Source: Gammaproteobacteria bacterium
Lineage (GTDB): Bacteria; Pseudomonadota; Gammaproteobacteria; Steroidobacterales; Rariloculaceae
Length of the DNA stretch: 64,000 bases
Reading direction: 5' to 3'
Assembly: GCA_035548835.1 (NCBI GenBank)
Contig: DASZSB010000168.1
Location: forward strand, 21,192 to 85,191
The notes beneath the pieces are model-generated. The model made no database searches and was not told the DNA's origin. It saw only the letters and a program-made list of their open reading frames with translations. Positions 1,725 to 63,034 of the stretch are shown here, piece after piece. Position numbers and translations under genes: made by a program. The first letter of the stretch is position 1. The number at the start of each line of letters is the position of its first letter.

Positions 1725-1767
1725 CAACTCCCAACGCAACCGATCAACCAACGCGAGGGCGCTGCGC

Positions 1768-25694: not shown

Positions 25695-25724
25695 GCGTAC
25701 GGCTCTAGGGATGTGCTCCGACGC

Positions 25725-25757
25725 GACGGCGAGCCTCTGGCTCGCCGTCGCCTTTTC
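25725..25757 (+). terminator. Rho-independent terminator after the receptor gene
   Basis: GACGGCGAGCC (25725-25735) / loop TCT / GGCTCGCCGTC (25739-25749) is a perfect 11 bp stem, followed by GCCTTTTCGG. Confidence 0.75.
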
Positions 25758-25880
25758 GGGGGTGCGGCCCCGGGGCGGGGCGCACGGGATTTCCGGCGCG
25801 CGCCGGATTGGTCCGCCCGGCGTCGTTGGGCCATAATCGATTTCGGATTTCTTCCTGCGAAACAGAGCCCTGCCGCCAAG

Positions 25881-26957: not shown

Positions 26958-26992
26958 CGCGGGAGCGACGGGCTCCACAAGGGGGAATCGAC

Positions 26993-27994
26993 ATGCACGG
27001 CAAACACCGGATCGGCATCGCGCTCGCAATCATGGCCTTGGCGGCGACAGCCGGCGCCCAAGAGCCCGTGGGTCGAATCCAGTCGCTCTCGCATGCGATC
27101 CATGCGGTCAACGACCTCGATACGACGCTCGCGTTCTATCGCGACGTGTTCGGCATCGAGGGCAAGGCCGTCGACTTCCCGAACCCTGGCGTGCCGCTGC
27201 TGACGAATGCGCCCGGCGTCACATTGCGCCTGTCCATGGTCGCGCTGCCCGGCGGCACGCGCTTCGAGTTCACGCACTTCAAGGGGCTCGAGCGCCAGCC
27301 GGCCCAGGCGAAGTACACCGATCCCGGCGCCGCGAGCCTCGTCCTGTACGTGCGCGACATCGATGCAGTCGCGGCCGCCGCGAAGAAGGCGCACGCCGTC
27401 ATCGTGACCACGGGCGGCGCGCCGGTCGAGATCGCCACGCCACAGGGCAAGACGCGCTCGATCATCCTGCGCGACCCGGACGGGTTCTTCCTGCAGCTCG
27501 TGCAGGAGACGCCCGCGGCCGGTGCGCCGCAGGGCAGCATCCACCGCGTCACCGTGGCCTATACGATGGAAAGCGCCGACGCGACGAAACGCTTCTACAC
27601 CGGCATGCTCGGCGTCGGGCTCGAGGGCGGCGCGGCCTTCGTCAAGGACCCCGCGTTTGCGAAGCTCGTCGGCGCGCCCGACAACGTGGAGTTCCGCAGG
27701 CTGAGCGGCACGCTGCCGCCCGGAACCCGCGTCGATTTCACGGAGTTCCGCGGCGTGCCGCGCAGCAAGTTCCACCTGCGGGTCCGCGACCCCGGCGCGC
27801 CGGCCCTGGCCATCCAGGTGGAGAACCTCGTGGGCATGGTGGCGCAGATGAAAGGGGCGGGCGTGAACGTGATCTCGACGAACGGTCAGCTGGTCGACTT
27901 TGGCAACGGCGTCCACAACATCTTCGTGGAGGATCCGAACGGCATGAACCTCGAGCTGATCGAGCGGTCGCCGCCGCCAGGCGGCAGCAAGTAG
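26993..27994 (+). CDS. Secreted two-domain VOC (glyoxalase/bleomycin-resistance/dioxygenase) family protein (copy 1)
   Basis: ATG at 26993 follows GGGGGAA. Signal peptide. 'HAIHAVNDLDTTLAFYRDVFGIEG' and a second repeat 'VAYTMESADATKRFYTGMLGV', plus 'DPDGFFLQLVQ' and 'DPNGMNLELIE'. Paralog of 47369..48394. Confidence 0.8.
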   Translation: MHGKHRIGIALAIMALAATAGAQEPVGRIQSLSHAIHAVNDLDTTLAFYRDVFGIEGKAVDFPNPGVPLLTNAPGVTLRLSMVALPGGTRFEFTHFKGLERQPAQAKYTDPGAASLVLYVRDIDAVAAAAKKAHAVIVTTGGAPVEIATPQGKTRSIILRDPDGFFLQLVQETPAAGAPQGSIHRVTVAYTMESADATKRFYTGMLGVGLEGGAAFVKDPAFAKLVGAPDNVEFRRLSGTLPPGTRVDFTEFRGVPRSKFHLRVRDPGAPALAIQVENLVGMVAQMKGAGVNVISTNGQLVDFGNGVHNIFVEDPNGMNLELIERSPPPGGSK

Positions 27995-28039
27995 CATGGA
28001 TTTGCACAGAGACCACGAGCGGACGAGGGGCAGAGCAAC

Positions 28040-29077
28040 ATGAGACGGGTGTCGTGGGGAACTTGTGCGGCGGCCGCGGTCGTCGCGGCCGCTCTCGGCG
28101 CGCAGGCGCAGACGTCGGCGCCCATTCAGGCGAGCGACGTGCCGCAGCGCAAGAAGGTGGCGCCTCTGCCGCCGCGCGGCACCTACGTGCCGCCGAAGAC
28201 CTCGTGGGGCGACCCCGCGATCGCCGGCGCGTACAACAACAGCGACGAGAGCGGCATTCCGTTCGAGCGGCCGGCCGAGTACGCGGGTCGTACGCTCGAC
28301 AGCTTCACGCCGGAGGAGCTCGCGAAGATCACGAGGCAGCGCCAGGAGCAGACCATCGAGCGCAATCCGACGCTGTCCGAGTTTCCGGGCGCCACGAGCC
28401 CGATGCACTGGTTCGAGAACTACTTCGCGGCCAACAGCCGGGCGTGGCTCGTCTCCGATCCGCCGGACGGCAAGGTGCCCGAGCTGACGGACGAGGCGCG
28501 GCAGCGGGCGGCGGCACGCGAGGAGGCTCGCAAGGGACGCGGACCGGCGGATTCCTACACGGATCGCAGCCTGTACGACCGCTGCATCACGCGCGGCGTG
28601 CCGGGCTCGATGATGCCGGCCATCTACGGCAACTCGTATCAGATCATGCAGAGCCCCGACGCGGTGACCATCACGTACGAGATGATCCACGACACACGGG
28701 TGATCCCGCTCGACGGCCGGCCGCACGTCGCGCCCGCGATACGCCAGTACCTGGGTGACGCGCGCGGTCACTGGGAGGGCAACACGCTGGTCGTCGAGAC
28801 CACGAATTTCAACGACAGGGTGCCGTTCCGCGGCTCGAGCCAGGAGCTCAAGCTCATCGAGCGCTTCACGCCGCTCGGCCCGGACACGCTCGAATGGTCG
28901 GTAACCTTCGACGATCCGCACACCTGGGCGCGGCCGTGGACGTTCGCCATGAACCTCACGCACGACGAATCGCAGCCGCTGTTCGAGTACGCCTGCCACG
29001 AGGGCAACTACGGCCTGCGCAACATGTTGTCGGCTGCGCGCGCCGAGGAAGCGGCCGCGCAGAAGAAGGGCAAGTAG
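28040..29077 (+). CDS. Secreted protein of uncharacterised family A (full length, 345 aa)
   Basis: Signal peptide. 'SWGDP', 'DRSLYDRCITRGVPGSM', 'ITYEMIHDTRVIPLDGRPH', 'GHWEGNTLVVETTNFN', 'LIERF' and 'FEYACHEGNYGLRNML' are shared almost block-for-block with 51939..52937. Confidence 0.85.
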   Translation: MRRVSWGTCAAAAVVAAALGAQAQTSAPIQASDVPQRKKVAPLPPRGTYVPPKTSWGDPAIAGAYNNSDESGIPFERPAEYAGRTLDSFTPEELAKITRQRQEQTIERNPTLSEFPGATSPMHWFENYFAANSRAWLVSDPPDGKVPELTDEARQRAAAREEARKGRGPADSYTDRSLYDRCITRGVPGSMMPAIYGNSYQIMQSPDAVTITYEMIHDTRVIPLDGRPHVAPAIRQYLGDARGHWEGNTLVVETTNFNDRVPFRGSSQELKLIERFTPLGPDTLEWSVTFDDPHTWARPWTFAMNLTHDESQPLFEYACHEGNYGLRNMLSAARAEEAAAQKKGK

Positions 29078-41894: not shown

Positions 41895-43361
41895 TCACTT
41901 GAACGTGAAGATGTCCTCGTCCGCGGGCTTCTGCATTCCCTGCTCGTGGTACTCCTGCCAGATCTGCGCCCACGGGCGGCCGAACATGTCGGGCACCTTG
42001 TACTGGATCACGGTTCCCGGTGCGACCGGCGTTGCGCGCCCGTTCAGCGGGTAGATCGTCGGCACGCACTCGATGAACTGATACGGCTCGCCGGCTTCGA
42101 CCTCGCTCGACTTCACGAGATTGCGGACCATGCGGATCGGCTGAACCAGCGCTTCCGGATCATAGAAGATGCCTTCGTGATTCAGGCCAACGACCTTGCC
42201 CGCGGCGTCGCGAGTGGGCGTATAGATCTCGATCGTCTGCAGCTTGCTCGAGAACTCGAAGTTGCCGTGCACCTTCCAGCCCTGGATGTTCGATGTCCAC
42301 GTGATCAGCACGTCCTTGTCCCAGAAGCCGACGGTCTCGCCGTACCACTTCGGCACTTCGGCGCCGAGGTGCGGCACGCTGCCGTTCACGTCGAAAGTGC
42401 GGCCTATGTTCACATGCGTGATGAAGTTGTCCGCGTCACCGGCGAGTATCTGCACGAGCTTCGGTGTCACGATGATCGAGTGCGCCTGATTCGTCACGCC
42501 GTGGTAATGCCAGCGGCGCATGAAGCCCTCGGGCCAGCAGTATTGGGCCGGCCACTGCGGCGCGTTCGTGTGGCCGTCGTGATACATCTCCTCGACCATG
42601 CGCGTCTGGTACTCGGGCGTCAGCAGCGACAGCACGGTCGGGATCTGCGTCCAGAAGATCTCCGCGTACCAGTTCTGGCCGCGTGGCCACAGATAGCGGC
42701 CGCTGATGTCGCCCGGCACCGTCGCGTAGGTGTGCTCGGTGGGACCGCCGCGGCGGCGCGTCTCCTCGAGCAGGGCCGCGTAGTGTTCGGCCGCGGTCTT
42801 GAACGGGTAGGGGCTCACGAGCGCCTCGCGCGGCAGGCCGCGATCGCAGTAACCCCACGCGGCCGAGCGCGGGGGATCGTCGCCGACCAGCGGCTTCACG
42901 TTGCCGCGTGCGGCCCACTGGGCCTCGAGAGCACCGTTGCTGTTGCAGCGGAAGTAGCGCGGGTCGCTCCAGAGCGCCTTGTCCTTGTAGAAGTCCGTCG
43001 ACGTGAAGACGTCGACCGGCAGCGGCTTGACGCCCTTCGGCACGGCGCCGTTCCACGCGGAGCCGTGGCGGGTCTCGACGGGCTTGCCGTCGGGGCCCGG
43101 CTTCGTCGCCCGGAACGGCCCCACCATCCAGTACCGCTCGGGCAGCCCGGGGATCTCCGCGGGCGGATAGGCTTCGATGTCGGGATTCGTCGGGTTCGGG
43201 ATGGCAACCGCGAGCGGCGCCGCGCGCCCGACACTCTTGAACCCGATGTCGGCGACCGCCTGCGCGCTGGCGGCCGGATCGAGAAGTGCCGCGACCGCGA
43301 GTGCTGCAACCAACTGGCAGAGCGCGGTCACGTTGACGAGAGGCGCGACGATCTTCGGCAT
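41895..43361 (-). CDS. Secreted protein, divergent long member of family A (488 aa)
   Basis: ATG at 43361 follows AAGGAG. Signal peptide. 'CWPEGFMRRW', 'IIVTPKLVQILAGDADNFITHVNIGR', 'PHLGAEVPKWYGETVGFWDKDVLITWTSN' align with the C..RG.P / ..I.Q.. / R.I.LDGR.H / G.W.GDTLVV.T blocks of family A. Confidence 0.75.
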   Translation of the reverse strand: MPKIVAPLVNVTALCQLVAALAVAALLDPAASAQAVADIGFKSVGRAAPLAVAIPNPTNPDIEAYPPAEIPGLPERYWMVGPFRATKPGPDGKPVETRHGSAWNGAVPKGVKPLPVDVFTSTDFYKDKALWSDPRYFRCNSNGALEAQWAARGNVKPLVGDDPPRSAAWGYCDRGLPREALVSPYPFKTAAEHYAALLEETRRRGGPTEHTYATVPGDISGRYLWPRGQNWYAEIFWTQIPTVLSLLTPEYQTRMVEEMYHDGHTNAPQWPAQYCWPEGFMRRWHYHGVTNQAHSIIVTPKLVQILAGDADNFITHVNIGRTFDVNGSVPHLGAEVPKWYGETVGFWDKDVLITWTSNIQGWKVHGNFEFSSKLQTIEIYTPTRDAAGKVVGLNHEGIFYDPEALVQPIRMVRNLVKSSEVEAGEPYQFIECVPTIYPLNGRATPVAPGTVIQYKVPDMFGRPWAQIWQEYHEQGMQKPADEDIFTFK

Positions 43362-43541
43362 GGTCGGCTCCTTGGCGGTCGCGCCACTCTGCCACAAGCC
43401 CGCGCGCGGGCACAGGCGCGATGCCTTGCGCGGCGGCGCCCGCAGCGCCGTCCGCCGTGGCGTCACACCACAGCCTCTAGTACGATCCCTGCGCTGCGGG
43501 TCGGTGGCCCGCACACCCAAAGAACAAGAAGGGGGGAAGCC

Positions 43542-44027
43542 ATGCGCGCGTTGTTGCTCGTCGGTGCAGTCGCCGTTGTGTCGTCGTCCGCCATTGCCCA
43601 GCAGCCCGCCGCCGGCTCGGGCAAGACCATGGTTTCCGCTGCCGACGTGGCCGCGCTGATCGCCAAAGCGAAAGCGGAGCGCAAGGACCAGCCGATCATT
43701 GCGCAGTCGATGTTGCAGATCGCGCCGTACAACGTGAGCCTCGAGTACCGTGCCTCCGTCGGCAACGCGGCCGTGCACGAGACCGAAGCGGAGTTGTTCT
43801 ACGTCGTCGACGGCTCGGCCACGCTGGTCACGGGCGGCAAGCTGACGGCCGAGAGGCGAACGAACGCCGAGAACCTCACGGGCACGGGCATCGAAGGCGG
43901 CGAGTCGCGTCACGTGGCCAAGGGGGATTTCATCCTGGTGCCCGACCACACGCCGCACTGGTTCAGCAAGATCGACGGCACGGTCGTACTGATGTCGTTG
44001 CACCTGCCATTGCATGCGGCGCACTAG
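43542..44027 (+). CDS. Secreted cupin-domain protein
   Basis: ATG at 43542 follows AAGGGGGGAA. Signal peptide. 'VHETEAELFYVVDGSATLVTGG' and 'GDFILVPDHTPHWF' are the two cupin motifs. Confidence 0.75.
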   Translation: MRALLLVGAVAVVSSSAIAQQPAAGSGKTMVSAADVAALIAKAKAERKDQPIIAQSMLQIAPYNVSLEYRASVGNAAVHETEAELFYVVDGSATLVTGGKLTAERRTNAENLTGTGIEGGESRHVAKGDFILVPDHTPHWFSKIDGTVVLMSLHLPLHAAH

Positions 44028-44072
44028 CGTGTCGGGACGGCCGGCCGTCCGGCAGACCCGGAGGGGACGTCG

Positions 44073-45218
44073 ATGACGCCCTTGAAGATCGTGCGCGGGC
44101 TCGCGATTGCCGGCACGCTGACGCTGGTTGCGGGCTCGCCGGCGCTCGCGCACCACGGCTTCGGGCTGTTCCAGATGGAGAAGCTCGCCGACTGGTCCGG
44201 CACGCTCACGAAGTTCGAGCTCGTGAATCCGCACTCGTATCTGTACTTCGACACCGTCGGCGCCGACGGTAAACCGCTGTCGATGCGCTGCGAGATGCGT
44301 GCGGCCACGTTGATCAAGCGCTCGGGCTGGAAGACGGAGGAGTTCGTTCCGGGCCGGCACGTCGACATCCACGGCCATCCGCATCGCGACGATCCCCACT
44401 CGTGCTACCTCGAGAGCGTCACGATCGGCGGCAAGACGTCGATCGATCGCAACGATCAGTTCACGCGCGCACCGGTCGACACTTCGAAGCGGCCGCTGCG
44501 ACTGGCGTCGGGCGAGCCGAACATCTCGGGCGACTGGGCCGTGGAGCAGGCCGTGCTGACGATTCCGCCGAGCGGCGGGCGCGGGGATCTCGTGCCGCGC
44601 AGCGTCCGCGAAGCGTACGCCGCGGGCAAGATCACGCTGGCCGAGATCCGTGCGCGCAATCCGGCGCCATCGAAGCCGCAATACACGCCGGCGGGTCAGG
44701 CGGCCGCGACGGCGTTCCGCATGTGGTCGCCGGAGGACAATCCGCGACTCTCCTGCAAGCCGACGAGCATCATCTTCGACTGGACGTTCGACTGGCCGGT
44801 CAATCGCATCACGCAGACCACCGTGAACGGCGAGAAGGTCATCGACATCGATTACGGCCTGTACAGCAACACGCGGCGCATCCACTTGGGTCTGGACAAG
44901 CATCCGTCGGGACTCGTGCCGAGCAACGCGGGCCATTCGATCGGCCGCTGGGACGGCGACACGCTGGTCGTCGATACCGTGGGCTTCACGGCGGGCGTGC
45001 TCGTGCCGCCGACGAAGAGCAGCGACAAGCTGCACGTCGTCGAGCGCTTCACGTTCGATCCGAAGACGTTCTCGCTGAAGCGCGAGTACACGGTCGAGGA
45101 CCCCGTGTACCTGGCGGCGCCGTACACGGGGCAGGACACGGTGCTGCTGTCGGACACGCCGTTCGAGAAGCAGCGCTGCTCGGAGCTGACGTACGAGTTC
45201 ACGCAGCCCGGCAACTGA
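44073..45218 (+). CDS. Secreted fusion protein: DUF6152-like N-terminal domain (family B) + family A C-terminal domain (copy 1)
   Basis: Signal peptide ending ALA, then HHGFG (His codons 44151-44156). '[11 protein letters not shown]...MRCEMRAAT...GHPHRDDP' matches 51492..51935. The C-terminal '[10 protein letters not shown]...NRITQT...RRIHLG..HP...[19 protein letters not shown]...LHVVERF' matches family A. About 60% identical by eye to 53090..54208. Confidence 0.8.
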
Positions 45219-45294
45219 CGCTTCAGACTGCGAGCTTTGGGGGTGGGCGCCGGCACGTTCCGGCGCGAGTTCGGGGGATTCGGGGCTGTCGATC

Positions 45295-47343
45295 ATGAGC
45301 CGGTTCAGGCATTTCCTGGTGCTCGCCGTGGCGAGCGTCGTCGCGTTGCAGTGGGCAGCTTCTGCACACGCCTACACGGCCGAGCAGGCTACGGCGGGGC
45401 GCGCCGCGTTCCAGGACGCCTGCGCGATGTGCCACGGCGCCAACCTGCGCAACCTGCCGAACGCCATTCTGGCGGCACCGGAGTTCGGCGCGCGCTGGAC
45501 GGGTCGCACGACCGCCGACCTGCTCCAGCAACTGAAGGCCACGATGCCGCCCGAGGCTCCCGGCAGCCTGCCGGAGGCCAGCTACCTTGGCATCATCTCG
45601 TTCCTGCTGCAGACCAATGGCTTTGCAGCGAACACGACGCCGCTGACCGCGGCCACGTCGGCGGTCATCGGCAGCGACGCGCTCGCGCCGGCGCGCCCGG
45701 CCGCCGAGCCTGTCGGCGTGACGGTGGCCGGCACCGTTCGCGACTTCGTGCCGCTGACCGAGCAGGCGCTGCGGAATCCCTCCGCCGGCGACTGGCCCAT
45801 GCTGCGCCGCGACTATGGCGCCTCGAGCTACAGCCCGCTGAAGGACGTCACGGCCGCGAACGCGCACCGCCTTACGCTCGCGTGGATCTGGCCGATGCGC
45901 GACGGCGGCACGAACGAGCCGTCGCCGCTCGCGTACCGCGGCACGGTCTACCTCAACAACACGCAGGGCATCGTGCAGGCCATCGACGGTCGCGATGGCT
46001 CGCTGATCTGGGAGCATCACGTCAAGGACACGGTCGCGAGCCGCGGCATGGCGCTCTACGACGACAAGCTGTTCCTGCAGGCCAATGGGCACCTGATCGC
46101 GCTGAACGCGCGCAATGGCGAGACGGTGTGGGACGTGCAGATGCCCGACGGCCACGCGAGCAGCAGCGGCCCGCTCGTCGCAAGCGGGCTCGTGATCCAG
46201 GGCATGGGCGCCTGCCAGACATACGAGCCGCTGAAGTGCTTCATCAGCGCGTACGACGCGAAGACGGGCGAGCAGAAGTGGCGCTTCCAGACGATCGCGA
46301 CCAGCGATCAGCCGGGCGGCAACACGTGGGGAAACCTGCCCGACCTCTATCGCGCCGGCGGGGAGACCTGGATCACCGGCAGCTACGACCCCGATCTCGG
46401 CCTCACGTACTGGGGCACGGCCCAGGCGAAGCCCTGGATGCCCGCGAGCCGCGGCATGGGCAGCCTGGATGCCGGGCTCTACACGAGCTCCACGGTCGCG
46501 CTCGACGTGCGCACCGGCAAGCTGGCATGGCACTACCAGCACGCGCCGGGCGAGGCGCTGGACCTCGACGTGGTGTTCGAGCGCGTGCTGGCCGACGGCG
46601 GCGGCCGCAAGTGGGTGCTGACCGTGGGCAAGGACGGCGTGCTGTGGAAGCTCGACCGGCGCACGGGCGAGTATCTCGATCACGCGGAAACTCTGTTCCA
46701 GAACGTCTGGGCGAGCTTCGATCGCGAGACGGGCCAGCCGCGTTATCGCGACGACATCCTGGCGCACAAGGTGAGCGACTGGATAGATGGCTGCCCGAGT
46801 TCGGAAGGCGGCCACAACTGGCAGGCCACGAGCTTCCACAAGCCGTCGCGCACGCTGCTGATTCCGCTGTCGCAGAGCTGCATCGCGATCCGCGCGCAGG
46901 CCATCGAGCAGAAGCCCGGCGGCGGCAACGCGGGTGGTGCCGACCGGCGCTTCTATGCGATGCCGGGCACGAATGGCAACATCGGCAAGCTCGCGGCGTT
47001 CGACATCGACACCATGAAGGAGAAGTGGTCGCTGCAGCAGCGGGCCGCGATCCTGACGGCCGCGTTGTCGACGGCCGGCGGCCTCGTGTTCATCGGCGAT
47101 CTCGATCGCAGCTTCAAGGCCATCGACGTGCGCGACGGCAAGGTGGTCTGGCAGACGCGGCTCGCGACCTCGGTACAGGGCTTTCCGATCTCGTTCGAGG
47201 CGGGCGGCAAGCAGTACATCGCGGTGACGACGGGTTTGGGCGGCGGCAGTCCGCGGCTCGTGCCGAATCTGCTGTCGCCGGAAGTTCAGCCGCCGGGGCG
47301 CGGCCAGGCCCTGTACGTGTTTGCGTTGCCGGACGAGCGTTGA
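45295..47343 (+). CDS. Periplasmic quinohaemoprotein-type dehydrogenase: N-terminal cytochrome c domain + PQQ beta-propeller (copy 2)
   Basis: Signal peptide [31 protein letters not shown] at 45421-45435. It carries the same PQQ-propeller blocks as copy 1, and '[10 protein letters not shown]' at 46561-46569 encodes D-L-D. Confidence 0.9.
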
Positions 47344-50903: not shown

Positions 50904-51476
50904 TCATGGTGCCGGCTCGATGCGCAGCAACGCGCCGGCCGTTTCGTCGGTCAATACGTACAGGAAGCCGTCGGGGCCCTGGCGCACGTCGCGCAGACGC
51001 TGTCCGAGCTCCGTCAGCAGCTTTTCCTGGGCGCCCGGCTTGCGCGCGCCGTCGAAGTCGATCCGCACGAGCGAGCGCGTCATGGTCGCCATGAAGAGAT
51101 CGCCGCGCCACGCGGGGAACCGACGGCCTGCGTAGAACGCAATGTTGCCGGGATTGATCGACGGCACCCAGTAGAGCACCGGATCGACCATGCCCGGCAC
51201 GTTCTCCGCGCCGCGCACGACGGGATCGCCGTTGTAGTGCTGGCCGTGCGTCGCCAGGATCCAGCCGTAGTTCTTGCCGGCTTCGATCCGGTTCAGCTCG
51301 TCCCCGCCGCGCGGTCCGAATTCCGTCGACCAGATCTCGCCGGTCGCCGGGTGCACGGTGAGGCCCGTGGGATTGCGATGGCCGAGGGTGTAGATCTCCG
51401 GCCGGAAGCCGTCCTTGCCGACGAACGGGTTGTTCCTCGGAATCGAGCCGTCGTCGCGGAGGAACCGGACCGGCAC
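50904..51476 (-). pseudogene. 3' fragment of a PQQ-dependent sugar (glucose/sorbosone) dehydrogenase gene; the N-terminal half is missing
   Basis: The 190 aa 'NPFVGKDGFRPEIYTLGHRNPTGL..HP.TGEIW.TEFGPRGGDELN.I..GKNYGW' plus the terminal 'DGFLYVLTD' correspond to roughly the last half of the ~370-aa six-bladed enzymes. There is no ATG (the ORF opens with an internal GTG), and the upstream gene's stop lies 16 nt away at 51492. Confidence 0.6.
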
Positions 51477-51491
51477 GGGGCGGTGGGCTCG

Positions 51492-51935
51492 CTACTGCGA
51501 CTCGGCCGGCTCGCTGCTGTCACCGGGCGCACCGGTGCCGGCCGAGCCCATGAACAAACGCGAGCCGTCAGGCAGGATCAGGTCGCGGCCGTTCGCACGG
51601 TTCGCACCGTTCTTGGCGCGATAGCCCTCGATCGTGATCTCGGTGCCGGGCTTCACGGCATCGCGCGTGTAGCCGCGCCGGAGCAGCGTGTTCGGCGTGG
51701 CTCCCTCGATCATCCATTCCGTCGTGGTGCCGTCGGGGTTCTTCACGGCGACGTGCAGCCAGCTGTGGGGGTTGATCCATTCCATGCGCACGATCTTGCC
51801 GTGCAGCGTGACGGGCTTGCTCGCGTCGAACTCGGCGGAGAACGAGTGATGCGCCGCGGCCGGTGGCACGATCCCGCCCAGACTCGCGGCGATGGCGAGG
51901 GGTAACAGGCAACGACGCGTTCTCATGCCGGACAC
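51492..51935 (-). CDS. DUF6152-like small secreted protein (family B, stand-alone)
   Basis: Signal peptide ending PAAA, then HHSFSAEFD (His codons 51846-51851). 'VTLHGKIVRMEWINPHSWLHV', 'EWMIEGATPNTLLRRG', 'GTEITIEGYRAKNG'. The start lies 3 nt after the stop of 51939..52937. Confidence 0.8.
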   Translation of the reverse strand: MSGMRTRRCLLPLAIAASLGGIVPPAAAHHSFSAEFDASKPVTLHGKIVRMEWINPHSWLHVAVKNPDGTTTEWMIEGATPNTLLRRGYTRDAVKPGTEITIEGYRAKNGANRANGRDLILPDGSRLFMGSAGTGAPGDSSEPAESQ

Positions 51936-51938
51936 CTC

Positions 51939-52937
51939 TCAACGCTTGTGCGCAGCCGCGGCGCGTTCCTCGTCGCGCGCGTTCTGCAGGATGTTGCGCA
52001 GACCATAGTTGCCTTCGTGGCACGCATACTCGTACAGCTCGCCGTCCGCGGGCCGCATCGAGTAGGCCACGGTCCAGGGCTGCGTCCACTGCGTGTCGTC
52101 CTCGAGCGTCAGGCGGAAGTCGATCTTGTCGTCGGCCGTGCGCCGATAGCGCTCCGTGAGCTTCAGGTTCGCGCCCGCGCCGCGAAACGGCGCTTTGCCG
52201 TTGAAGTTGCGGGACTCGACGACCAGCGTGTCGCCTTCCCAGTGCCCGCGCGATTCGCCGAGATAGCTGCGCACGCCGGTGAACGGGGAGCCGTCGAGCG
52301 GCACCACGCGCGTCTCGTGAATCATCTCGTGCACGATGGCCACGTAGCCCGGCGCCTGTGTGATGCGGATGTTGTTGTTGTACAGAGTCGGCAGGATCGT
52401 GGCCGGCAGCCCGCGCGTGATGCAACGCTCGTACAGCGGCCGGTCGCGATAGGAGTCCACCCTGCCGCCGGGCGGTGCACCGGCGGCCGCCGCGCGTGCC
52501 GCCTCCTGGCGCGCCTGGGCTTCGGGCGTCAGCGGCGGAATGCGCCCGGTCTTGGGCTCGACGATCAGCGACGTGCGATGCGCGTCGTCGAGGCGCCGGC
52601 CGGGGTCGGTCAGATACTCGGCGTGCACAAAGCCGCTGGCGGGCGCGTTGGGGTCCGGCGGCTTGTCCATGCGCCGAGCCGCACGACCCTCGAGCTCCGC
52701 GACCTCCTGCTCGGTGTAGAACTCGCGATCACCGAACTCCGGCCGCCGCTCGAGCGGTGTGATGGTGCGGTAGTCCCAGACGCCCTGCAGATCCGGATCG
52801 CCCCATGACGTCCGCGCTGCGGATGCGGCCGGCGGCTGCGGTGCGGCCGCCGCCGCGGATTGGGCAGGAACGTCACGAGAGAACGACCACGTTGCCGCGA
52901 GCAGTACGGCGGCCGGTGTCAGAACTCGGGCCCGCAT
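51939..52937 (-). CDS. Secreted protein of uncharacterised family A (332 aa)
   Basis: Signal peptide. 'SWGDPDLQGVW', 'DRPLYERCITRGLPATI', 'IVHEMIHETRVVPLDGSP', 'GHWEGDTLVVESRNFN', 'LTERY', 'YEYACHEGNYGLRNIL'. Confidence 0.85.
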   Translation of the reverse strand: MRARVLTPAAVLLAATWSFSRDVPAQSAAAAAPQPPAASAARTSWGDPDLQGVWDYRTITPLERRPEFGDREFYTEQEVAELEGRAARRMDKPPDPNAPASGFVHAEYLTDPGRRLDDAHRTSLIVEPKTGRIPPLTPEAQARQEAARAAAAGAPPGGRVDSYRDRPLYERCITRGLPATILPTLYNNNIRITQAPGYVAIVHEMIHETRVVPLDGSPFTGVRSYLGESRGHWEGDTLVVESRNFNGKAPFRGAGANLKLTERYRRTADDKIDFRLTLEDDTQWTQPWTVAYSMRPADGELYEYACHEGNYGLRNILQNARDEERAAAAHKR

Positions 52938-53089
52938 CCCGGAATCCCCCTGTGAGACGGCTGCTTCGATCCTAGCACGCTGCGGCGGTGCGAGAACCGT
53001 CCGGTTCGGTCCGGCCTTTCCGCCGCGAGGCGCGGCGGCAGCGCGTATACTGCGCGCCGAGCCGCGGACGGCTCGGAACGGAGACCAGA

Positions 53090-54208
53090 ATGAAACGTTG
53101 GGCCATCGCCCTGGCGGCGTTGACGGTGACGAGCGCTGCGCTCGCGCACCACGGTTTCGGCAACATCGATGCCACGAAAAACGTGACGCTCGAGGGTACG
53201 CTGACCGGCATCGACTTCGTGAATCCGCACGCCTACCTGTATTTCGACTCGGTGGGTGCGGATGGGAAGACGCTCAAGATGCGCTGCGAGATGCGCGCGG
53301 CCACCGTGTTGCGCCGCTCCGGGTGGTCGCCCGAGATGTTCGTTCCCGGCAAGCACGTCACGGTGAACGGCCATCCGAATCGCGCGGATCCCGCCTCGTG
53401 CTACGTCGAGGACCTGAAGATCGGCGATGCGCCGACGCTGGTTCGTTATCAGCAGCTCACGAGCAACGCGGGTGCGGCCAACGCGAATCGTCCGTTGCGC
53501 CGCCCGAGCGGCGAGCCGAACATCTCCGGCGACTGGGCGCAGGAGCAGTATCTGCTGGCCAAGCTGCCGAAGGGCCCCGGTGCGCTCGTGCCGAAGAGCA
53601 TGCTCGCGGCCGTCGAGGCCGGCACGGTGGCCGTCGCCGACGTGCCGAGCAACGGCTGGGCCGCGCGACCCGTGACATACACCGCCGCGGGACAGGCCGC
53701 TTCCGACGCGCTTAAGAAGGCGCGCCCGGACGACAATCCGCGGGCGCGGTGCGAGATCACGAGCGTGCTGTTCGACTGGGTCTTCGACGGCCCGATCAAT
53801 CGCATCACGCAGGACGCGGACACCATCACGATCGAGTACGGCCGCGGGCTGAAGCGCACGGTCTATATGAAGCAGGCGTCGCACCCGGCGGGCATCAAGC
53901 CGACGCGCGGCGGCCATTCGATCGGCAAGTGGGAGGGCGACACGCTCGTGGTCGACACGGTGGGCTTCGCGCCGGGCAGCCTGGCCGGGACCGTGCCGAA
54001 CAGCGACAAGCTGCACATCGTGGAGCGGTTCACGCTCGATACGAAGACGTTGGCGCTGCACCGTGACTATGTGGCCGAGGATCCGGTGTACTTCGCGAGC
54101 AAGTACACCGGCAGCGATACCGTGCTGCCCGCCGACGCCCCGTTTGCGGCGGACGAGTGCAAGGAGCTGACGTACCGCAACTACTCGCAGGAGACCCAGA
54201 AGAAGTAG
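53090..54208 (+). CDS. Secreted fusion protein: family B (DUF6152-like) N-terminal domain + family A C-terminal domain (copy 2)
   Basis: ATG at 53090 follows GGAG. Signal peptide ending ALA, then HHGFG (His codons 53147-53152). '[30 protein letters not shown]', 'NPRARCEITS...NRITQD...[19 protein letters not shown]...LHIVERF'. Confidence 0.8.
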   Translation: MKRWAIALAALTVTSAALAHHGFGNIDATKNVTLEGTLTGIDFVNPHAYLYFDSVGADGKTLKMRCEMRAATVLRRSGWSPEMFVPGKHVTVNGHPNRADPASCYVEDLKIGDAPTLVRYQQLTSNAGAANANRPLRRPSGEPNISGDWAQEQYLLAKLPKGPGALVPKSMLAAVEAGTVAVADVPSNGWAARPVTYTAAGQAASDALKKARPDDNPRARCEITSVLFDWVFDGPINRITQDADTITIEYGRGLKRTVYMKQASHPAGIKPTRGGHSIGKWEGDTLVVDTVGFAPGSLAGTVPNSDKLHIVERFTLDTKTLALHRDYVAEDPVYFASKYTGSDTVLPADAPFAADECKELTYRNYSQETQKK

Positions 54209-54215
54209 ACGGCGA

Positions 54216-54803
54216 TCAGCGCTGGATCTCCCAGCCGCCGACCTGCGTGCGGCAGGCCAACCCGGCGCGCGAGGAGCGCTGGCGGCCGCTGATCGTGGTC
54301 ATCGTGAACTCACGGCACACCGTGCCGTGGCGTTCACGGTTGGCTCCCGGCAGCAGCTCGTAGCGCACGGTGTCGTGGGTCCACACGACCACGCGGCCCG
54401 GCCGGCCGAGCTCCAGCGCATGGCCGAAGCAGCCGCGATCGGCTTCGTCGAGCTCGCGCCCGATGCGGTTGCCGATCAGCGCGCCGGCGACGGCGCCAAT
54501 GATCGTGGCGATCGCGCGATTCTCGGGGTCGCCAACGCGGGCGCCGATCACACCCCCGACGACCCCGCCGAGCGCGGCGGCGACGGCCTGGCGGTCGCAC
54601 CGCCCGGAGAGGACGGCGTAGTCGTTGTCCCAGCGCCTGCCTTCGTAGCCGACGTAACCGCGCTCGCGGTGCTCGTCGCGTTCGTGGTTACGCCGCCAAC
54701 CGTGGGCGGGGGCGTGGTCCGGCGGGTCAGCCGCCACGGAGCCGGCGGCGAAGACGGCCATGAGCGACGCGACGACGAGAGGCATTCGGCCGGGTGCGGG
54801 CAT
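54216..54803 (-). CDS. Glycine-zipper / 17-kDa-surface-antigen-like outer-membrane protein
   Basis: Signal peptide. 'AAALGGVVGGVIGARVG...IATIIGAVAGALIGNRIG' is a glycine-zipper repeat, followed by a C-terminal domain with Cys pairs. Confidence 0.7.
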   Translation of the reverse strand: MPAPGRMPLVVASLMAVFAAGSVAADPPDHAPAHGWRRNHERDEHRERGYVGYEGRRWDNDYAVLSGRCDRQAVAAALGGVVGGVIGARVGDPENRAIATIIGAVAGALIGNRIGRELDEADRGCFGHALELGRPGRVVVWTHDTVRYELLPGANRERHGTVCREFTMTTISGRQRSSRAGLACRTQVGGWEIQR

Positions 54804-58284: not shown

Positions 58285-59226
58285 GTGAATCCGAGCCGCC
58301 GGCACTTCCTGCGCACCGTGGGCACTGCGGGCGCGGCCGCGGCTCTGCTGCGCTTCGGCGGCGCGCAGGCGGCCGGCGCCGAGCTCACGGTCACGCAGCT
58401 GCGGGACGGCCTGCACCTGGTGGCGGGCGCCGGAGGCAACGTCGTGGTGCTCGCGAGGCCGGAGGGCCTGCTGCTGGTGGACAGCGGCGCGAGCGAGCGC
58501 GCCGGCGAGCTGCTTGCGTTGCTGGGGCAGCGGTTCGCGGGCGCACCCGTCGGTGTCCTGTTCAACACGCATTGGCACCTCGATCACACGGGCGGCAACG
58601 ACGCGATTGCGGCGCGCGGCACGAAGACCATCGTGGCGCACGAGAACACGCGGCTCTGGATGAGCACCAAGTTCTACGTGGAATGGGAAGACCGGTACTA
58701 TCCGCGGCGCGCCCCGGCGAGCCGGCCGAACAAGACCTTCTTCACCTCCGACAGGCAGCCGCTCGAGCTCGAATTCGGCGGCGAGCGCGTGGTGTACGGA
58801 CAGCTCACGGAGGCTCATACCGACGGCGATCTCTACGTGCACTTCCCCGACCGCAACGTGATCGTGGCAGGGGGCGCGGTAACGGCGGGACGCTACCCGG
58901 TGCTCGACTACATCACGGGCGGCTGGATCGGCGGCATGGTGGACGCCACCACGAAGCTGCTCGCGCTGGCCGATGCGTCCACGCTGATCGTGCCCGATGT
59001 CGGTCCCGCCCAGATGCGCGCGGACCTCGAGGCGCAGGCGGGCATGCTGTCCACGGTGCGTGAACGGATCGAGGCCATCGCGCTGCAGGGACGCGGCGTG
59101 CAGGACATGCTCGCCGAGCGCATCACGAGGGAGTTCGATCCGCGCTACGGCCCCGATTCCGCGCAGTTCATCAGCAACGCGTATAAGAGCATGTGGTGGA
59201 ACCGGTTGCGTGGAATCGTGGCATAG
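58285..59226 (+). CDS. MBL-fold metallo-hydrolase with Tat signal
   Basis: GTG at 58285 gives 'NPSRRHFLRTVGTAGAAAALLRFGGAQA', a Tat leader. 'LFNTHWHLDHTGGN' (HxHxDH), 'EAHTDGD'. Confidence 0.8.
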   Translation: MNPSRRHFLRTVGTAGAAAALLRFGGAQAAGAELTVTQLRDGLHLVAGAGGNVVVLARPEGLLLVDSGASERAGELLALLGQRFAGAPVGVLFNTHWHLDHTGGNDAIAARGTKTIVAHENTRLWMSTKFYVEWEDRYYPRRAPASRPNKTFFTSDRQPLELEFGGERVVYGQLTEAHTDGDLYVHFPDRNVIVAGGAVTAGRYPVLDYITGGWIGGMVDATTKLLALADASTLIVPDVGPAQMRADLEAQAGMLSTVRERIEAIALQGRGVQDMLAERITREFDPRYGPDSAQFISNAYKSMWWNRLRGIVA

Positions 59227-59233
59227 AGGCGCG

Positions 59234-61687
59234 ATGAAGCAGGGCAAACCGCATTGGCTGGCCGCACTGCTGCCGTTGCTCGCGACGGCCTGCAGCGAGC
59301 CCCCGGAGCAGGCGCTCGCCAGCCGCTGGCCGATGCTGAAGCGGTACTGCACCGACTGTCACAACGACGCCGAGCTCACGGGCGGCATGTCGCTCGAGCA
59401 CGTGACCACGGCCGACGTCGCGGCAAACCCGAAGCGCTGGGAGGAAGTCGTGCGCCGGCTTCGCGGCAGCCTGATGCCCCCGCCCGGAAATCCGCAGCCC
59501 GGCGCGGAACAGACGAAGCAGTTCGTCGCGGCGCTGGAGGCGAATCTCGACGCCGCGGCGGCGGCGCGCGGCGCCGTGCCGGGCCGAACGGTTCTGCACC
59601 GGCTGAATCGCGTCGAGTACGCGACGGCGGTGCAGGATCTGCTCGGCGTCAGTGTCGATCCGGCGAGGCTGCTGCCGCCCGACGCGACGAGCGATGGCTT
59701 CGACAACGTGGCGGAAGTGCTGCGGGTCACTCCGACGTACCTCGATCAGTACATCGCGGCCGCGCGCGAGATCAGCCTGAAAGCCGTCGGCAATCCGCAA
59801 GCGGCGCCCACGCGTGCCGAATACGTCGCGAAGAATCGGAATCACACGGCCCACGTCGAAGGACTGCCGCTCGGCACGCGCGACGGCTTGGTCGTGGAGC
59901 ATTACTTCCCGGCCGACGGCGAGTACGTCTTCAGGCTCAACGTCTCGTCGCGCCCCGGCGGGGAGCTCACCTATTACCCGCAAGGCTGGCTCGCGTACAA
60001 GCACACCGGCATCCTGACGATCGACGGCGTGCGCGTCTTCCAGGCCGATCTCGGCGGCGACGACGATCTGCGCGATCTCGACCGCTATCAGATCGTGACG
60101 GTCAACGCCATCAAGGACCGGTTCCGCGACATCCGCGTGAACGTGAAGGCGGGCTACCGCAAGGTTGGCGCGGCTTTCGTCGCACGCAGTCAGGCCGAGT
60201 CCGACTACGCGCTGCAGCGGTTCGTGCCCGGCGAAGGCTTCCCCGACGTGCCGTGGATGCTCGGTTTCGAGGTCGTGGGACCGTACGCGCCCACGGGCAT
60301 CGGCGCAGAGACGCGCAGCCGCGAGCACATCTTCACCTGTCACCCGCAGAGCGCCGCCGAAGAGCTGCCGTGCGCCGAGCAGATCCTCGGCCGGCTCGCG
60401 CGGCTCGCGTTCCGCCGGCCCACGACGGAAACCGAGATCGAGCGCCTGCTGGCGTTCTACCGGGCCGGACAGGCGAACGGCGGGTTCGAGACCGGCGTGC
60501 AGCGCGGCCTGCTCGCGATCCTGGCCAGCACGAATTTCCTGTACCGGGCGGAGCCCGGTGGAGTGCCGCAAGGCGTGGAACCCGGCGCCGTCTACGCGGT
60601 GTCGGACCTCGAGCTCGCCTCCCGGCTGGCGTTCTTCCTGTGGAGCGAGGGCCCGGACGACGAGCTTCTGAAAGCGGCCGACGCGAATCGCCTGAGCGAC
60701 CCCAAGGTGTACACGGAGCAGCTGGCGCGCATGCTCGCCGATCCGCGGTCGCGCTCGCTCGTGACGAACTTCGCGTTCCAGTGGCTCGGCGTTCGCGGAC
60801 TCGACGTGATCGAGCCGGATCCGAAGCTCTACCCGAACTTCGACGAGGAGCTGCGCAAGGCGTTCGTCGGCGAAATGGAGCGCTTCCTCGACAGCATCCT
60901 GCGCGACGAGAAGCGCAGCGTGCTCGAGCTTCTCGACGCGAAGTACACGTTCGTGAACGAGCGGCTCGCGCGCCACTACGGCATCGAAGGTGTTCGCGGC
61001 GACCGCTTCCGTCGCGTGGAGCTCGAGGACCCGCGCCGCTTCGGCCTGTTTGGCAAGGGCAGCGTGCTGCTCGCCACGTCCTACCCGGACCGCACCTCGC
61101 CCGTGCTGCGCGGCGCATGGATCATGGAGCACATGCTCGGTACTCCGCCGCCACCGCCGCCGCCTGGCGTGTCGACGAACCTGGCGCCGCTCGCAATGGA
61201 GCAGCCGCATTCGGTGCGTGAACGCCTGGCGCTGCATCGCACCCAGAGCTCCTGCAACGGCTGCCACGGCGTGATCGATCCTCTCGGCCAGGCGCTCGAG
61301 AACTACAACGCCATCGGCGAGTGGCGGACGTTCGAGCGCGACAGCGGTGCGCCGATCGACCCCACGGGCAAGCTTGCGAACGGCAAGCCGGTCAGCAGCC
61401 CGATCGATCTGCGCGAGGCGTTGCGCGCGGAGCCGGGCCAGTTCGTCCAGACCATCGTGCAGAATCTGATGACGTACGCGCTCGGCCGGCGTGTGGAGTA
61501 CTACGACATGCCGGCGGTGCGGGCGATCGTGCGCGACGCGGCGCGCAACCACTATTCGTTCGCGGCCATCGTCAAGGGTGTGGCGGGCAGCGTGCCGTTC
61601 CGCATGCGCACCGCGCCAGAGATCGTCAACGGGCAGGGCGAAACGGTTGCGGCTGCCGCGGCCGGCAATTCCGGAGGAGGGCACTAG
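59234..61687 (+). CDS. DUF1587/DUF1592/DUF1595/DUF1588/DUF1585-type multidomain protein with two CxxCH motifs (lipoprotein-like signal)
   Basis: ATG at 59234. 'LLPLLATAC' is lipobox-like. CTDCH at 59348-59362 and CNGCH at 61253-61267. 'LHRLNRVEYATAVQDLLG', 'SDGFDNVAEVL.V.P', 'LASRLAFFLWSEGPDDELL', 'FAFQWLG', 'TFVNERLARHYGI', 'RTSPV.RG.WI.E..LG' are typical of this planctomycete-type family. Confidence 0.85.
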   Translation: MKQGKPHWLAALLPLLATACSEPPEQALASRWPMLKRYCTDCHNDAELTGGMSLEHVTTADVAANPKRWEEVVRRLRGSLMPPPGNPQPGAEQTKQFVAALEANLDAAAAARGAVPGRTVLHRLNRVEYATAVQDLLGVSVDPARLLPPDATSDGFDNVAEVLRVTPTYLDQYIAAAREISLKAVGNPQAAPTRAEYVAKNRNHTAHVEGLPLGTRDGLVVEHYFPADGEYVFRLNVSSRPGGELTYYPQGWLAYKHTGILTIDGVRVFQADLGGDDDLRDLDRYQIVTVNAIKDRFRDIRVNVKAGYRKVGAAFVARSQAESDYALQRFVPGEGFPDVPWMLGFEVVGPYAPTGIGAETRSREHIFTCHPQSAAEELPCAEQILGRLARLAFRRPTTETEIERLLAFYRAGQANGGFETGVQRGLLAILASTNFLYRAEPGGVPQGVEPGAVYAVSDLELASRLAFFLWSEGPDDELLKAADANRLSDPKVYTEQLARMLADPRSRSLVTNFAFQWLGVRGLDVIEPDPKLYPNFDEELRKAFVGEMERFLDSILRDEKRSVLELLDAKYTFVNERLARHYGIEGVRGDRFRRVELEDPRRFGLFGKGSVLLATSYPDRTSPVLRGAWIMEHMLGTPPPPPPPGVSTNLAPLAMEQPHSVRERLALHRTQSSCNGCHGVIDPLGQALENYNAIGEWRTFERDSGAPIDPTGKLANGKPVSSPIDLREALRAEPGQFVQTIVQNLMTYALGRRVEYYDMPAVRAIVRDAARNHYSFAAIVKGVAGSVPFRMRTAPEIVNGQGETVAAAAAGNSGGGH

Positions 61688-63034
61688 ATGTTCATCACCA
61701 AGAAACACCTGTCGCGACGCACGTTTCTGCGGGCCGGCGGCGTGACAATAGGCCTGCCGCTCCTGACCGCGATGGTGCCGGCCGCAACGGCACTCGCGCA
61801 GACCGCCGCCGCCCGCAAGCCGCGGCTCGGATTCTTCTACCTGCCGCACGGCGCCATCATGGCGAACACGCGCTACGGCGAGGAGATGAACCGCTGGACG
61901 CCTGAGAAGATCGGCCGCGACTTCGACCTGAAGCCGATCCTCTCGCCGTTCGCGCCGCACCAGAAATACATGACCGTCGTCAGCGGACTGGGAAACCACA
62001 CCGCCGAGAGCCCGGCCGTGCACGCGATCCACCCCGGCACGTGGCTCACGTGCGTGGCGCCGCCGCGCTCGCAGACGCCGAACGGCGGCGTCTCGGTCGA
62101 CCAGGTGGCCGCGCGGCACATCGGCCAGGAGACACCGCTGCCGTCGCTCGAGCTCGCGACGGAGGAGAAGGGCGGCAGCTCCGGTTGCGATGCCACCTAC
62201 GGCTGCAGCTACGCGCGCACGATCTCGTTCCGCACGCCGACGACCCCGCTGCCGATGGAGGCGGACCCCGGCAAGGTGTTCGAGAAGATCTTCGGCCGCG
62301 GCAACAACACGCAGGAGCGCAACGACATCGCGAACGACTTCTCGAGCGTGCTCGACCTCGTGCTCGCGGAGATGAACGACCTGAACAGAGGGCTCGGCGC
62401 CGAGGACCGGGCGATCGTCCACGACTATCTCGACAGCGTCCGCGAGCTCGAGCGGCGAGTCCAGCTGCTGAAGTCGCGCGATCTGTCGAACGTGGAGCTG
62501 CCGACGATTCCGGTCGCGGCGCCGTCGTTCGACGAGCGCCTGCGGCTCATGTTCGACCTGCTGGCCGTCGCCTACCAGACGAACGTCACGCGGGTCGCGT
62601 CCTTCATGATGGTGGCGGAAGTCAGCAACCAGTCCTACGCGCACGTCGGCGTGCCGGACGCCTTCCACCCGCTGTCCCACCACGCCGACAACAAGGCGTC
62701 GATGGAAAAGCTCGTGATCGTGCAGCGGTATCACAGCCAGGTGTTCGCCGAGTTCCTGGCCAAGCTCGCGAAGACGCCGGACGGCGACGCGGGCTCGATG
62801 CTCGACAGCTCGATCTTCATGTACGGCAGCAACATGAGCAACAGCAACCAGCACGACTCGTTCCCGCTGCCGACCGTCGTGTTCGGCGGCGGCAACGGCA
62901 AGATCCGGGGCAACCAGCACCTGCGTTACCCGGATCACACGCCGATCGCGAACCTGCTGTACACGCTGATGCTGCGGGCCGGAGTGCCGGCCGAGAAATT
63001 CGGCGACAGCACCGGCGAGCTCACGGAGGTCTGA
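61688..63034 (+). CDS. DUF1552 domain protein with Tat signal
   Basis: ATG immediately follows the upstream TAG. 'LSRRTFLRAGGVTIGLPLL' is a Tat leader. 'PRLGFFYLPHG', 'SLEL', 'RSVLD.V', 'AYQTNVTRVASFM', 'HH.LSHH', 'SSIFMYGSNMSNSNQHD' are DUF1552 blocks. Confidence 0.85.
   Translation: MFITKKHLSRRTFLRAGGVTIGLPLLTAMVPAATALAQTAAARKPRLGFFYLPHGAIMANTRYGEEMNRWTPEKIGRDFDLKPILSPFAPHQKYMTVVSGLGNHTAESPAVHAIHPGTWLTCVAPPRSQTPNGGVSVDQVAARHIGQETPLPSLELATEEKGGSSGCDATYGCSYARTISFRTPTTPLPMEADPGKVFEKIFGRGNNTQERNDIANDFSSVLDLVLAEMNDLNRGLGAEDRAIVHDYLDSVRELERRVQLLKSRDLSNVELPTIPVAAPSFDERLRLMFDLLAVAYQTNVTRVASFMMVAEVSNQSYAHVGVPDAFHPLSHHADNKASMEKLVIVQRYHSQVFAEFLAKLAKTPDGDAGSMLDSSIFMYGSNMSNSNQHDSFPLPTVVFGGGNGKIRGNQHLRYPDHTPIANLLYTLMLRAGVPAEKFGDSTGELTEV

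Follow-up and report, generated by a model that had tools for sequence, protein, structure and literature searches.

DUF6152 and a large secreted protein family are operon neighbours or fusion partners in Acidobacteriota and Gammaproteobacteria

Secreted metalloproteins that begin with histidine include the lytic polysaccharide monooxygenases (LPMOs), CopC, YcnI and DUF4198. The copper histidine brace is recognized by a conserved histidine at the start of the mature chain, and both the LPMOs and CopC are beta-sandwich folds. Across several unrelated folds, such a histidine behind a signal peptide is a sign of metal chelation (PMC12537917, PMC10952591). Examples are DUF4198, which binds nickel (Kd 18 nM), DUF6702 and the "anglerases" (PMC10952591, PMC12537917); all three were found by signal strapping, the anglerases and DUF6702 being beta-sandwiches and DUF4198 divergent (PMC12537917, PMC10952591, PMC8424229). 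DUF6152 (Pfam PF19649) is absent from the families in the papers on N-terminal-histidine proteins (PMC10952591, PMC12537917). Its Pfam entry, for small proteins secreted by Proteobacteria and Acidobacteriota, gives no function and covers a domain of only ~98 residues. Here we describe how DUF6152, referred to below as family B, is tied to a second secreted family, A, starting from a 64,000-nucleotide stretch of a gammaproteobacterial metagenome-assembled genome (contig DASZSB010000168.1; GC content roughly 68%). We refer to this whole stretch as the window.

An earlier note on this DNA had proposed, from the letters and their translations, that an A-B operon in the window faces a gene fusing the two families, and that neither family has an assigned function. 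The latter holds: no Pfam or NCBIfam model matched A or its shorter subtype A-short, no Pfam family (lipocalin types included) matched any of 127 diverse A members even at E up to 1, and no sequence relative of A, A-short or B was found in the PDB, a profile search with A included. Literature searches returned no paper naming DUF6152 or PF19649 (nor DUF6644 or PF20349), and the fusion of DUF6152 to an A barrel, its constant A neighbour and its invariant His-His are found in none of the papers searched.

The four genes on which the proposal rested are all present, with A and fusion 1 diverging across 152 bp and with a second, paralogous fusion of the same architecture that is 53% identical to the first (Table 1). 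B and both fusion N-termini belong to PF19649, each scoring above its gathering threshold of 27 bits: B at 116.8 bits (E 4.9e-34), residues 11-99 of fusion 1 at 73.2 bits (E 1.9e-20) and residues 20-106 of fusion 2 at 60.9 bits (E 1.3e-16). The proposed homology between B and the fusion N-termini is borne out by BLASTP as well (B against residues 11-111 of fusion 1, E 2e-14). On the other side, A matches the C-termini of fusions 1 and 2 over ~100 residues (BLASTP E 3e-7 and 2e-7), and profiles built from close homologues align at 95.3% (E 2.3e-8). With a deep A profile, the 127-sequence alignment of representatives of 50%-identity clusters, A residues 34-311 align with fusion residues 129-362 over 228 columns (hhalign 99.2%, E 1.4e-19). 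The fusion is therefore DUF6152 joined to essentially a whole mature A-type protein; the kinship that the note had seen stands, whereas its restriction to the C-terminal half of A does not. The motifs it had picked out by eye fall in register (G-PxxxG-W, RC, NxIxQ, GxSxGxWxGDTLVV, ERFT, DP, CxE..Y). B and A match non-overlapping parts of the fusion, as a Rosetta-stone relationship requires. Fusion 1 consists of a signal peptide (residues 1-19), DUF6152 as a predicted OB domain (~20-111; 53147..53422), a linker, and an A-short-like part at residues 129-362 (53474..54175) that includes a conserved Cys pair, C221 and C357. The inventory of related genes was correct for the four listed and missed three further A-superfamily genes (2..382, 28040..29077 and 41895..43361), which brings the window to six A-superfamily genes and three DUF6152 domains. 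The most distant of these, at 41895..43361, has no Pfam match and was recognized by hmmsearch with the A-short (E 1.3e-7) and A (E 1.3e-6) profiles, local E-values of this kind referring here and below to small databases. A small cupin-like gene and fusion 2 are transcribed divergently from it.

Table 1. Features of the A/B system in the window and DUF6644 genes at related loci
Feature	Position	Strand	Basis
Family A, full-length subtype, 332 aa	51939..52937	-	ORF confirmed
Family B, stand-alone DUF6152, 144 aa from ATG 51926 (147 aa from GTG 51935)	51492..51926	-	Pfam PF19649
Fusion 1, 372 aa, DUF6152 plus A-short-like part	53090..54208	+	ORF, Pfam, profile alignment
Fusion 2, 381 aa, same architecture as fusion 1	44073..45218	+	ORF, Pfam, BLASTP
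Intergenic region between divergent A and fusion 1, 152 bp	52938..53089	.	alignment with relative L001
Second full-length family A gene, 345 aa, 40% identical to A, without DUF6152 partner	28040..29077	+	
A-short-type gene, only its C-terminal end inside the window	2..382	+	A-short HMM E 1e-33 vs A-full HMM E 1.2e-25
Secreted 488-aa protein with a distant A-type barrel segment, motif GFWDKDVLITWTSN	41895..43361	-	hmmsearch
PQQ-dependent dehydrogenase with N-terminal cytochrome c domain	45295..47343	+	Pfam
DUF6644 ORFs at related loci	L103:4539-5840, L138:1756-2763, L020:9951-11068, L041:9486-10582, L112:3090-3665, L004:11799-12284		

The A and B genes of the window are adjacent as described, separated by probably 12 nt, not 3. 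In the public annotation B begins at ATG 51926, and a GAGG Shine-Dalgarno sequence lies over the A stop codon, 8 nt ahead of this ATG, in TGAGAGGTGTCCGGCATG; ATG 51926 is most likely the B start. A 12-nt gap points to tight coupling, with a single transcript and coupled translation indicated. The same divergent layout of fusion and A-B pair recurs in the closest relative with flanking sequence (L001, 80% identity) and on a second public contig. Alignment of the 152-bp region with L001 reveals short conserved islands (GATCCTAGCA, CGAGAA.CGTC and TATACT) that are presumably the two promoters. A scan of 51300..54400 with consensus sigma-70 promoter and terminator patterns matched nothing, so that this assignment is interpretive.

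A and B genetically belong together, as operon neighbours or as fusions, in both Acidobacteriota and Gammaproteobacteria. We examined two sets, neither larger than 80 loci and both skewed to the best matches: an A-centred set of 80 loci from GTDB species genomes, in which six-frame open reading frames (ORFs) were searched with profiles, and a B-centred set of 80 metagenome loci chosen by stand-alone DUF6152 alignment alone. The B-centred set contains 83 DUF6152 genes, of which 75 are testable and eight lie too near a contig end. An A-family gene sits directly upstream on the same strand of 62 of the 75 and directly downstream of another eight, leaving five with none; 70 of the 75 (93%) have an adjacent A. 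Even if 20% of all genes were A genes, the binomial probability of at least 62 in 75 would be about 3e-31. In the A-centred set, 33 of 38 DUF6152 copies are linked to A, 27 lying directly downstream of it, three being fused to it in the same ORF and three having A within 600 nt downstream, while five stand alone. Gaps between the two are short (20-190 nt from domain to domain in the A-centred loci). Both phyla are represented.

The fused architecture is equally widespread, with at least 120 clusters at 90% identity, all of 361-390 aa and containing DUF6152, extending down to 67% identity and including members on complete chromosomes. DUF6152 comes first in every fusion seen, that is, in the at least 120 listed clusters and the three same-ORF fusions of the loci. 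No fusion in the order A-B turned up; six long A proteins end in other or unknown domains, none of them DUF6152. B occurred by itself or with A and in no other combination. A itself was found fused to VOC, Lipocalin_5 and squalene-cyclase-like domains, each in a single representative, and is therefore moderately promiscuous. The note had named in advance what would count against a Rosetta-stone link, namely fusion N-termini unrelated to B, or co-occurrence and fusion elsewhere at chance level; the N-termini are homologous, and co-occurrence and fusion in other genomes exceed chance. Linked pairs of domains of unknown function are common. Since the source is a metagenome-assembled genome, the fusion ORFs could in principle be assembly or frameshift artefacts. 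The identical fusion protein on two independent contigs, the two paralogous fusions in the window and homologous fusions in hundreds of independent assemblies, complete chromosomes among them, refute this explanation, to which we attach practically no probability.

The link is asymmetric. While B nearly always has an A, only 21 of 118 full-length A genes in the A-centred scan (~18%) have DUF6152 directly downstream, and 82% are without B. The usual partner of B appears to be a shorter subtype, A-short, of ~265-300 aa, which has neither the C-terminal helix nor the insert at profile positions 60-150. We separated A-short from full-length A (A-full) by a heuristic that classifies six-frame ORFs by profile coordinates, and counted gene order for the 31 B genes of the B-centred set with at least 2.3 kb of upstream sequence. 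The order is A-short, B in 11 cases, A-short, A-full, B in nine and A-full, B in five; three have other chains that include A-short, and three have no A upstream. A-short is thus part of the chain for 23 of the 31. The fused A part likewise matches the A-short profile better, contiguously and at 87 and 84 bits for fusions 1 and 2, compared with 63 and 68 bits in two pieces for the A-full profile. A-short rather than full-length A is the commonest companion of B and, judged by profile score, the nearest kin of the fused part, and the window therefore looks like the usual three-part set. We suggest that a canonical A-short, A-full, B operon was rearranged here, such that A-full and B stayed together and the A-short equivalent gained its own DUF6152 domain and came to be transcribed divergently.

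DUF6152 has a highly constant mature N-terminus. In the window, the signal peptide of B ends in AAA and is followed by His-His (codons 51849-51851 and 51846-51848), with His29 encoded at 51765-51767 and Glu49 at 51705-51707; the codons for the equivalent His1, His2, His28 and Glu48 of fusion 1 are at 53147, 53150, 53228 and 53288. His-His stands straight after a hydrophobic signal sequence in 119 of 119 DUF6152 copies from both scans. Among the 118 scored, the residue at -1 is Ala in 109, Gly in four and Ser in three, which fits the signal peptidase I rule, and the residue at -3 is Ala, Val or Leu in 105. As far as sequence alone can tell, histidine is the first residue of mature DUF6152. A Pro-His at mature position 29 (28 in fusions) occurs in 117 of the 119 copies. 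In a 30-sequence alignment H26, H27, H54 and E74, which correspond to mature His1, His2, His29 and Glu49, are invariant, as are their equivalents H20, H21, H47 and E67 in the fusion family. By analogy, a His-His start combined with a third His and a Glu resembles the signature of secreted N-terminal-histidine metal chelators.

In an AlphaFold2 (AF2) model of the fusion, the N-terminal domain comprises strands 32-44, 47-55 and 61-69, a helix at 70-75, and strands 89-97 and 103-111. Foldseek matches it to SSB, PriB, RPA and the N-domain of LysRS (prob 1.00, TMt 0.56-0.64), and DUF6152 is accordingly predicted to be a five-stranded oligonucleotide/oligosaccharide-binding (OB) barrel in which a helix separates strands 3 and 4. 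In this model, whose N-terminus has low confidence, strand 2 begins with the third His and strand 3 ends with the Glu; as the two strands are antiparallel neighbours, these side chains should be adjacent. B shares with the LPMOs, CopC, YcnI, DUF4198, DUF6702 and the anglerases a signal peptide, a conserved histidine right behind it and further conserved His and carboxylate residues, and a partner protein is common to B-A, CopC-CopD, YcnI-YcnJ and anglerase-permease. It differs from the N-terminal-histidine families in its predicted OB barrel and in the two consecutive histidines at the mature start, and from the anglerase-permease pairs in that its partner is a soluble, predicted calycin barrel. 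We considered B as a member of the LPMOs (AA9-AA17) or of CopC and rejected both assignments, since Foldseek returns OB folds, not an immunoglobulin/fibronectin-like or cupredoxin-like beta-sandwich, and there is no Pfam match to either. No literature on OB-fold N-terminal-histidine periplasmic copper proteins was found. Stand-alone B also carries a tail beyond the Pfam domain, LF(M/L)GSSGTGAP, which reads LFMGSAGTGAP in the window (51492..51560, minus strand). The fusions lack this tail and have the linker to the A part in its stead; speculatively, it may be a docking peptide.

Family A is very large. A word-indexed search found at least 8000 homologues (8000 of 8000 candidates significant), and a library of 1.84 billion proteins contains 20,416 cluster representatives at 50% identity with E <=1e-3, 9,343 of them at <=1e-10. 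In genomes, A occurs mostly in Acidobacteriota (Vicinamibacterales, Bryobacterales) and Gammaproteobacteria, often in tandem arrays, one locus (L019) having six in a row. The AF2 model of A, built from a deep alignment (pLDDT 88, pTM 0.83), comprises a signal peptide, an extended N-terminal strap with the motif SWGDPDLQGVW, helices 76-91, 100-105 and 138-152, eight beta strands within residues 189-296 and a C-terminal helix, 312-331. Foldseek searches of the PDB return CRABP2, FABP6, Tp0751, NanoLuc and streptavidin at TMt 0.4-0.48. The fold class of the model is clear, an eight-stranded calycin-like (lipocalin/FABP-like) barrel without a close solved relative. A would share the up-and-down barrel with the calycins (lipocalins, FABPs and avidins), of which Tp0751 and ZinT/YodA are bacterial examples, and one A relative carries an additional Pfam Lipocalin_5 domain. 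Unlike them, A has ~150 extra N-terminal residues, a C-terminal helix and a conserved Cys pair, and matches no lipocalin Pfam family. R171, C172, G227, G231, E262, C306 and E308 are invariant in the 127-sequence alignment; the Cys pair C172/C306 is kept in the fusions as C221/C357, and a disulfide staple is therefore likely. The segment HEMIH (residues 203-207) had suggested a zincin, an assignment we rejected because its first His is unconserved in the 127-sequence alignment and the model places the segment in beta strands 198-203 and 209-213 rather than in a helix.

It is very probable that A and B are partners both physically and functionally. What we infer for their biochemical function is a single extracytoplasmic module. 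Signal-peptidase cleavage would free the amino group of His1 of mature B, which, together with its side chain, His2 and/or His29, and Glu49, would chelate a divalent transition metal, with Cu(II) as a first guess and Ni(II) as a second. The A barrel, wrapped by the N-terminal strap and clamped by the Cys pair, would hold a small organic ligand, probably a hydrophobic one; the fusions of A to Lipocalin_5, VOC and squalene-cyclase-like domains and its oxidoreductase neighbours hint at such a ligand. B would dock on A, and on A-short above all, or be tethered to it in the fusions, bringing the metal site to the barrel. The pair might then process a ligand, or hand it off, in a metal-dependent manner in the periplasm, together with pyrroloquinoline quinone (PQQ) dehydrogenases and VOC-fold enzymes. 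The B-A order of the fusions, the reverse of the A-B order of the operons, would follow from the need for a free N-terminal histidine, since a domain whose His must keep its alpha-amino group free has no other place in a fusion. We consider the chances even that B binds a metal; the combined picture of a metal-holding B on a ligand-holding A barrel we advance tentatively, as falling a little short of that.

Several observations weigh against this picture. All folds of A and B are predictions: the fusion model is of moderate quality (pLDDT 73), with low confidence at the N-terminal histidines, and Foldseek finds only weak matches for A (best E 3.9e-3). Naming copper or nickel is guesswork. In a Pfam census of 138 flanking ORFs from 45 loci, the one metal-homeostasis neighbour is a Cu P-type ATPase (locus L009), and the company of A is thus one of periplasmic oxidoreductases and hydrolases rather than of metal-homeostasis genes. 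The 82% of full-length A genes without B imply that A does not need B, and a comparison of 44 A-full sequences with B and 106 without it yielded no residue that sharply distinguishes the B-partnered ones, the largest frequency gap being 0.39 and involving no His, Cys, Asp or Glu. These last two results would be expected if A and B were independent secreted proteins that are merely co-regulated, the fusions being neutral accidents of rearrangement. Such accidents are hard to square with a fusion that persists across at least 120 clusters (identity down to 67%) and in window paralogues that have diverged to 53%, with an adjacent A for 93% of B genes in two phyla, or with the short gaps between the genes, and we consider co-regulation by itself highly improbable.

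Genes flanking the A/B loci are variable. The commonest family is DUF6644 (10 ORFs; Table 1), small multi-pass membrane proteins that adjoin B, usually as tandem pairs, in six of the 45 loci and are weakly similar to DUF2214, which we take to belong to a CopD-like group of membrane proteins. Together with the copper ATPase, which is divergent at its one locus, and with the N-terminal histidine signature that B shares with characterized metal binders and transport accessories, these genes raise the alternative that B is a periplasmic metal scavenger in the manner of CopC/YcnI or the anglerases, handing its ion to a membrane protein or to neighbouring metalloenzymes, with A as a scaffold or docking partner. 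DUF6644 is, however, confined to a minority of loci and absent from the window, and the flanking ORFs include no regulators or transporters typical of metal uptake. A scavenger would also leave the many calycin-barrel paralogues unexplained, six in the 64-kb window and six in tandem in L019. We regard the scavenger role as unlikely.

A different use of the N-terminus is known from tissue inhibitors of metalloproteinases (TIMPs) and serralysin inhibitors, small secreted beta-barrels that insert a processed N-terminal residue into the active site of their partner. B would resemble them as a small secreted barrel whose processed N-terminus is critical to function, and its predicted OB fold, its strictly conserved mature start, its tight genetic coupling to A and the many invariant charged residues of A would all suit a plug-type regulator or inhibitor whose His-His enters the barrel or active centre of A. 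B differs in that its N-terminus is His rather than Cys or Ser, the stand-alone mature protein has no Cys and hence lacks the TIMP disulfide pattern, and there is no evident protease partner; A is not a zincin, given that HEMIH is unconserved and lies in beta strands. A permanent covalent fusion of inhibitor and target would be unusual, and the conserved His29 and Glu49 suggest that B contains a complete site of its own. A plug function therefore appears very unlikely to us.

A bolder version of the metal-binding module would make DUF6152 an OB-fold histidine-brace copper domain that forms, with A, a new class of secreted copper-dependent oxidizing enzymes. Such enzymes would act on periplasmic hydrophobic small molecules in soil Acidobacteriota and Gammaproteobacteria, together with quinohaemoprotein (PQQ plus cytochrome c) dehydrogenases; we rate this as quite unlikely. 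Family A is very large, is abundant in dominant soil phyla and has no Pfam, NCBIfam or PDB entry, and DUF6152 is a named but unstudied family. The firm link between them comes with a concrete prediction for two blank annotations. If the metal site is real, it would add a new fold to the few N-terminal-histidine metalloproteins, which include the industrially important LPMOs and the copper chaperones. A real metal site would likewise offer a way into the periplasmic carbon processing of Vicinamibacterales, Bryobacterales and Steroidobacter-like bacteria, known mostly from metagenomes.

PQQ dehydrogenases are the next commonest neighbours (8-9 of the 138 flanking ORFs), three of which also have cytochrome c. 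Within the window, a cytochrome-c/PQQ dehydrogenase gene (45295..47343) begins 76 nt after fusion 2, with a secreted two-domain VOC protein next in line; a paralogue of this dehydrogenase, 66% identical and likewise with an N-terminal cytochrome c, lies at 1678..3891, 1.3 kb downstream of the A-short fragment. Another secreted two-domain protein of VOC/glyoxalase fold (26993..27994) is encoded 45 nt upstream of the A paralogue at 28040..29077. A VOC-A fusion occurs elsewhere (P0307, 587 aa), and VOC may be another domain linked to A by fusion. BLAST at 1e-4 gave no match between the VOC portion of P0307 and the VOC proteins of the window, and this link thus consists of the shared Pfam family and the adjacency. 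Upstream of the VOC/A-paralogue pair are a TonB-dependent receptor-like ORF of 1138 aa, recognized by eye from its translation (22278..25694, plus strand), and a 414-aa ORF (25713..26957, plus strand).

Long minus-strand ORFs of 743-1161 aa run antisense to real genes at 41895..45296, 23544..27029 and 26768..28999; we rejected them as genes, this being the usual artefact of high-GC DNA. A 190-aa ORF, 16 nt downstream of B (50904..51476, minus strand), matches only GSDH (glucose/sorbosone dehydrogenase) in Pfam and appears to be N-terminally truncated or a remnant, since the GSDH gene of L082 encodes 427 aa. Near the fusion gene, a block at 58285..62937 (plus strand; gene calls of L081) encodes a PSCyt/PSD multi-domain protein (DUF1587/DUF1592-type), an HXXSHH (DUF1552) protein and a metallo-beta-lactamase-fold protein. 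The same block is found at L082:11975-16793 on a complete chromosome of 5.45 Mb, and it supplies another pair of secreted proteins without assigned function that travels with the locus.

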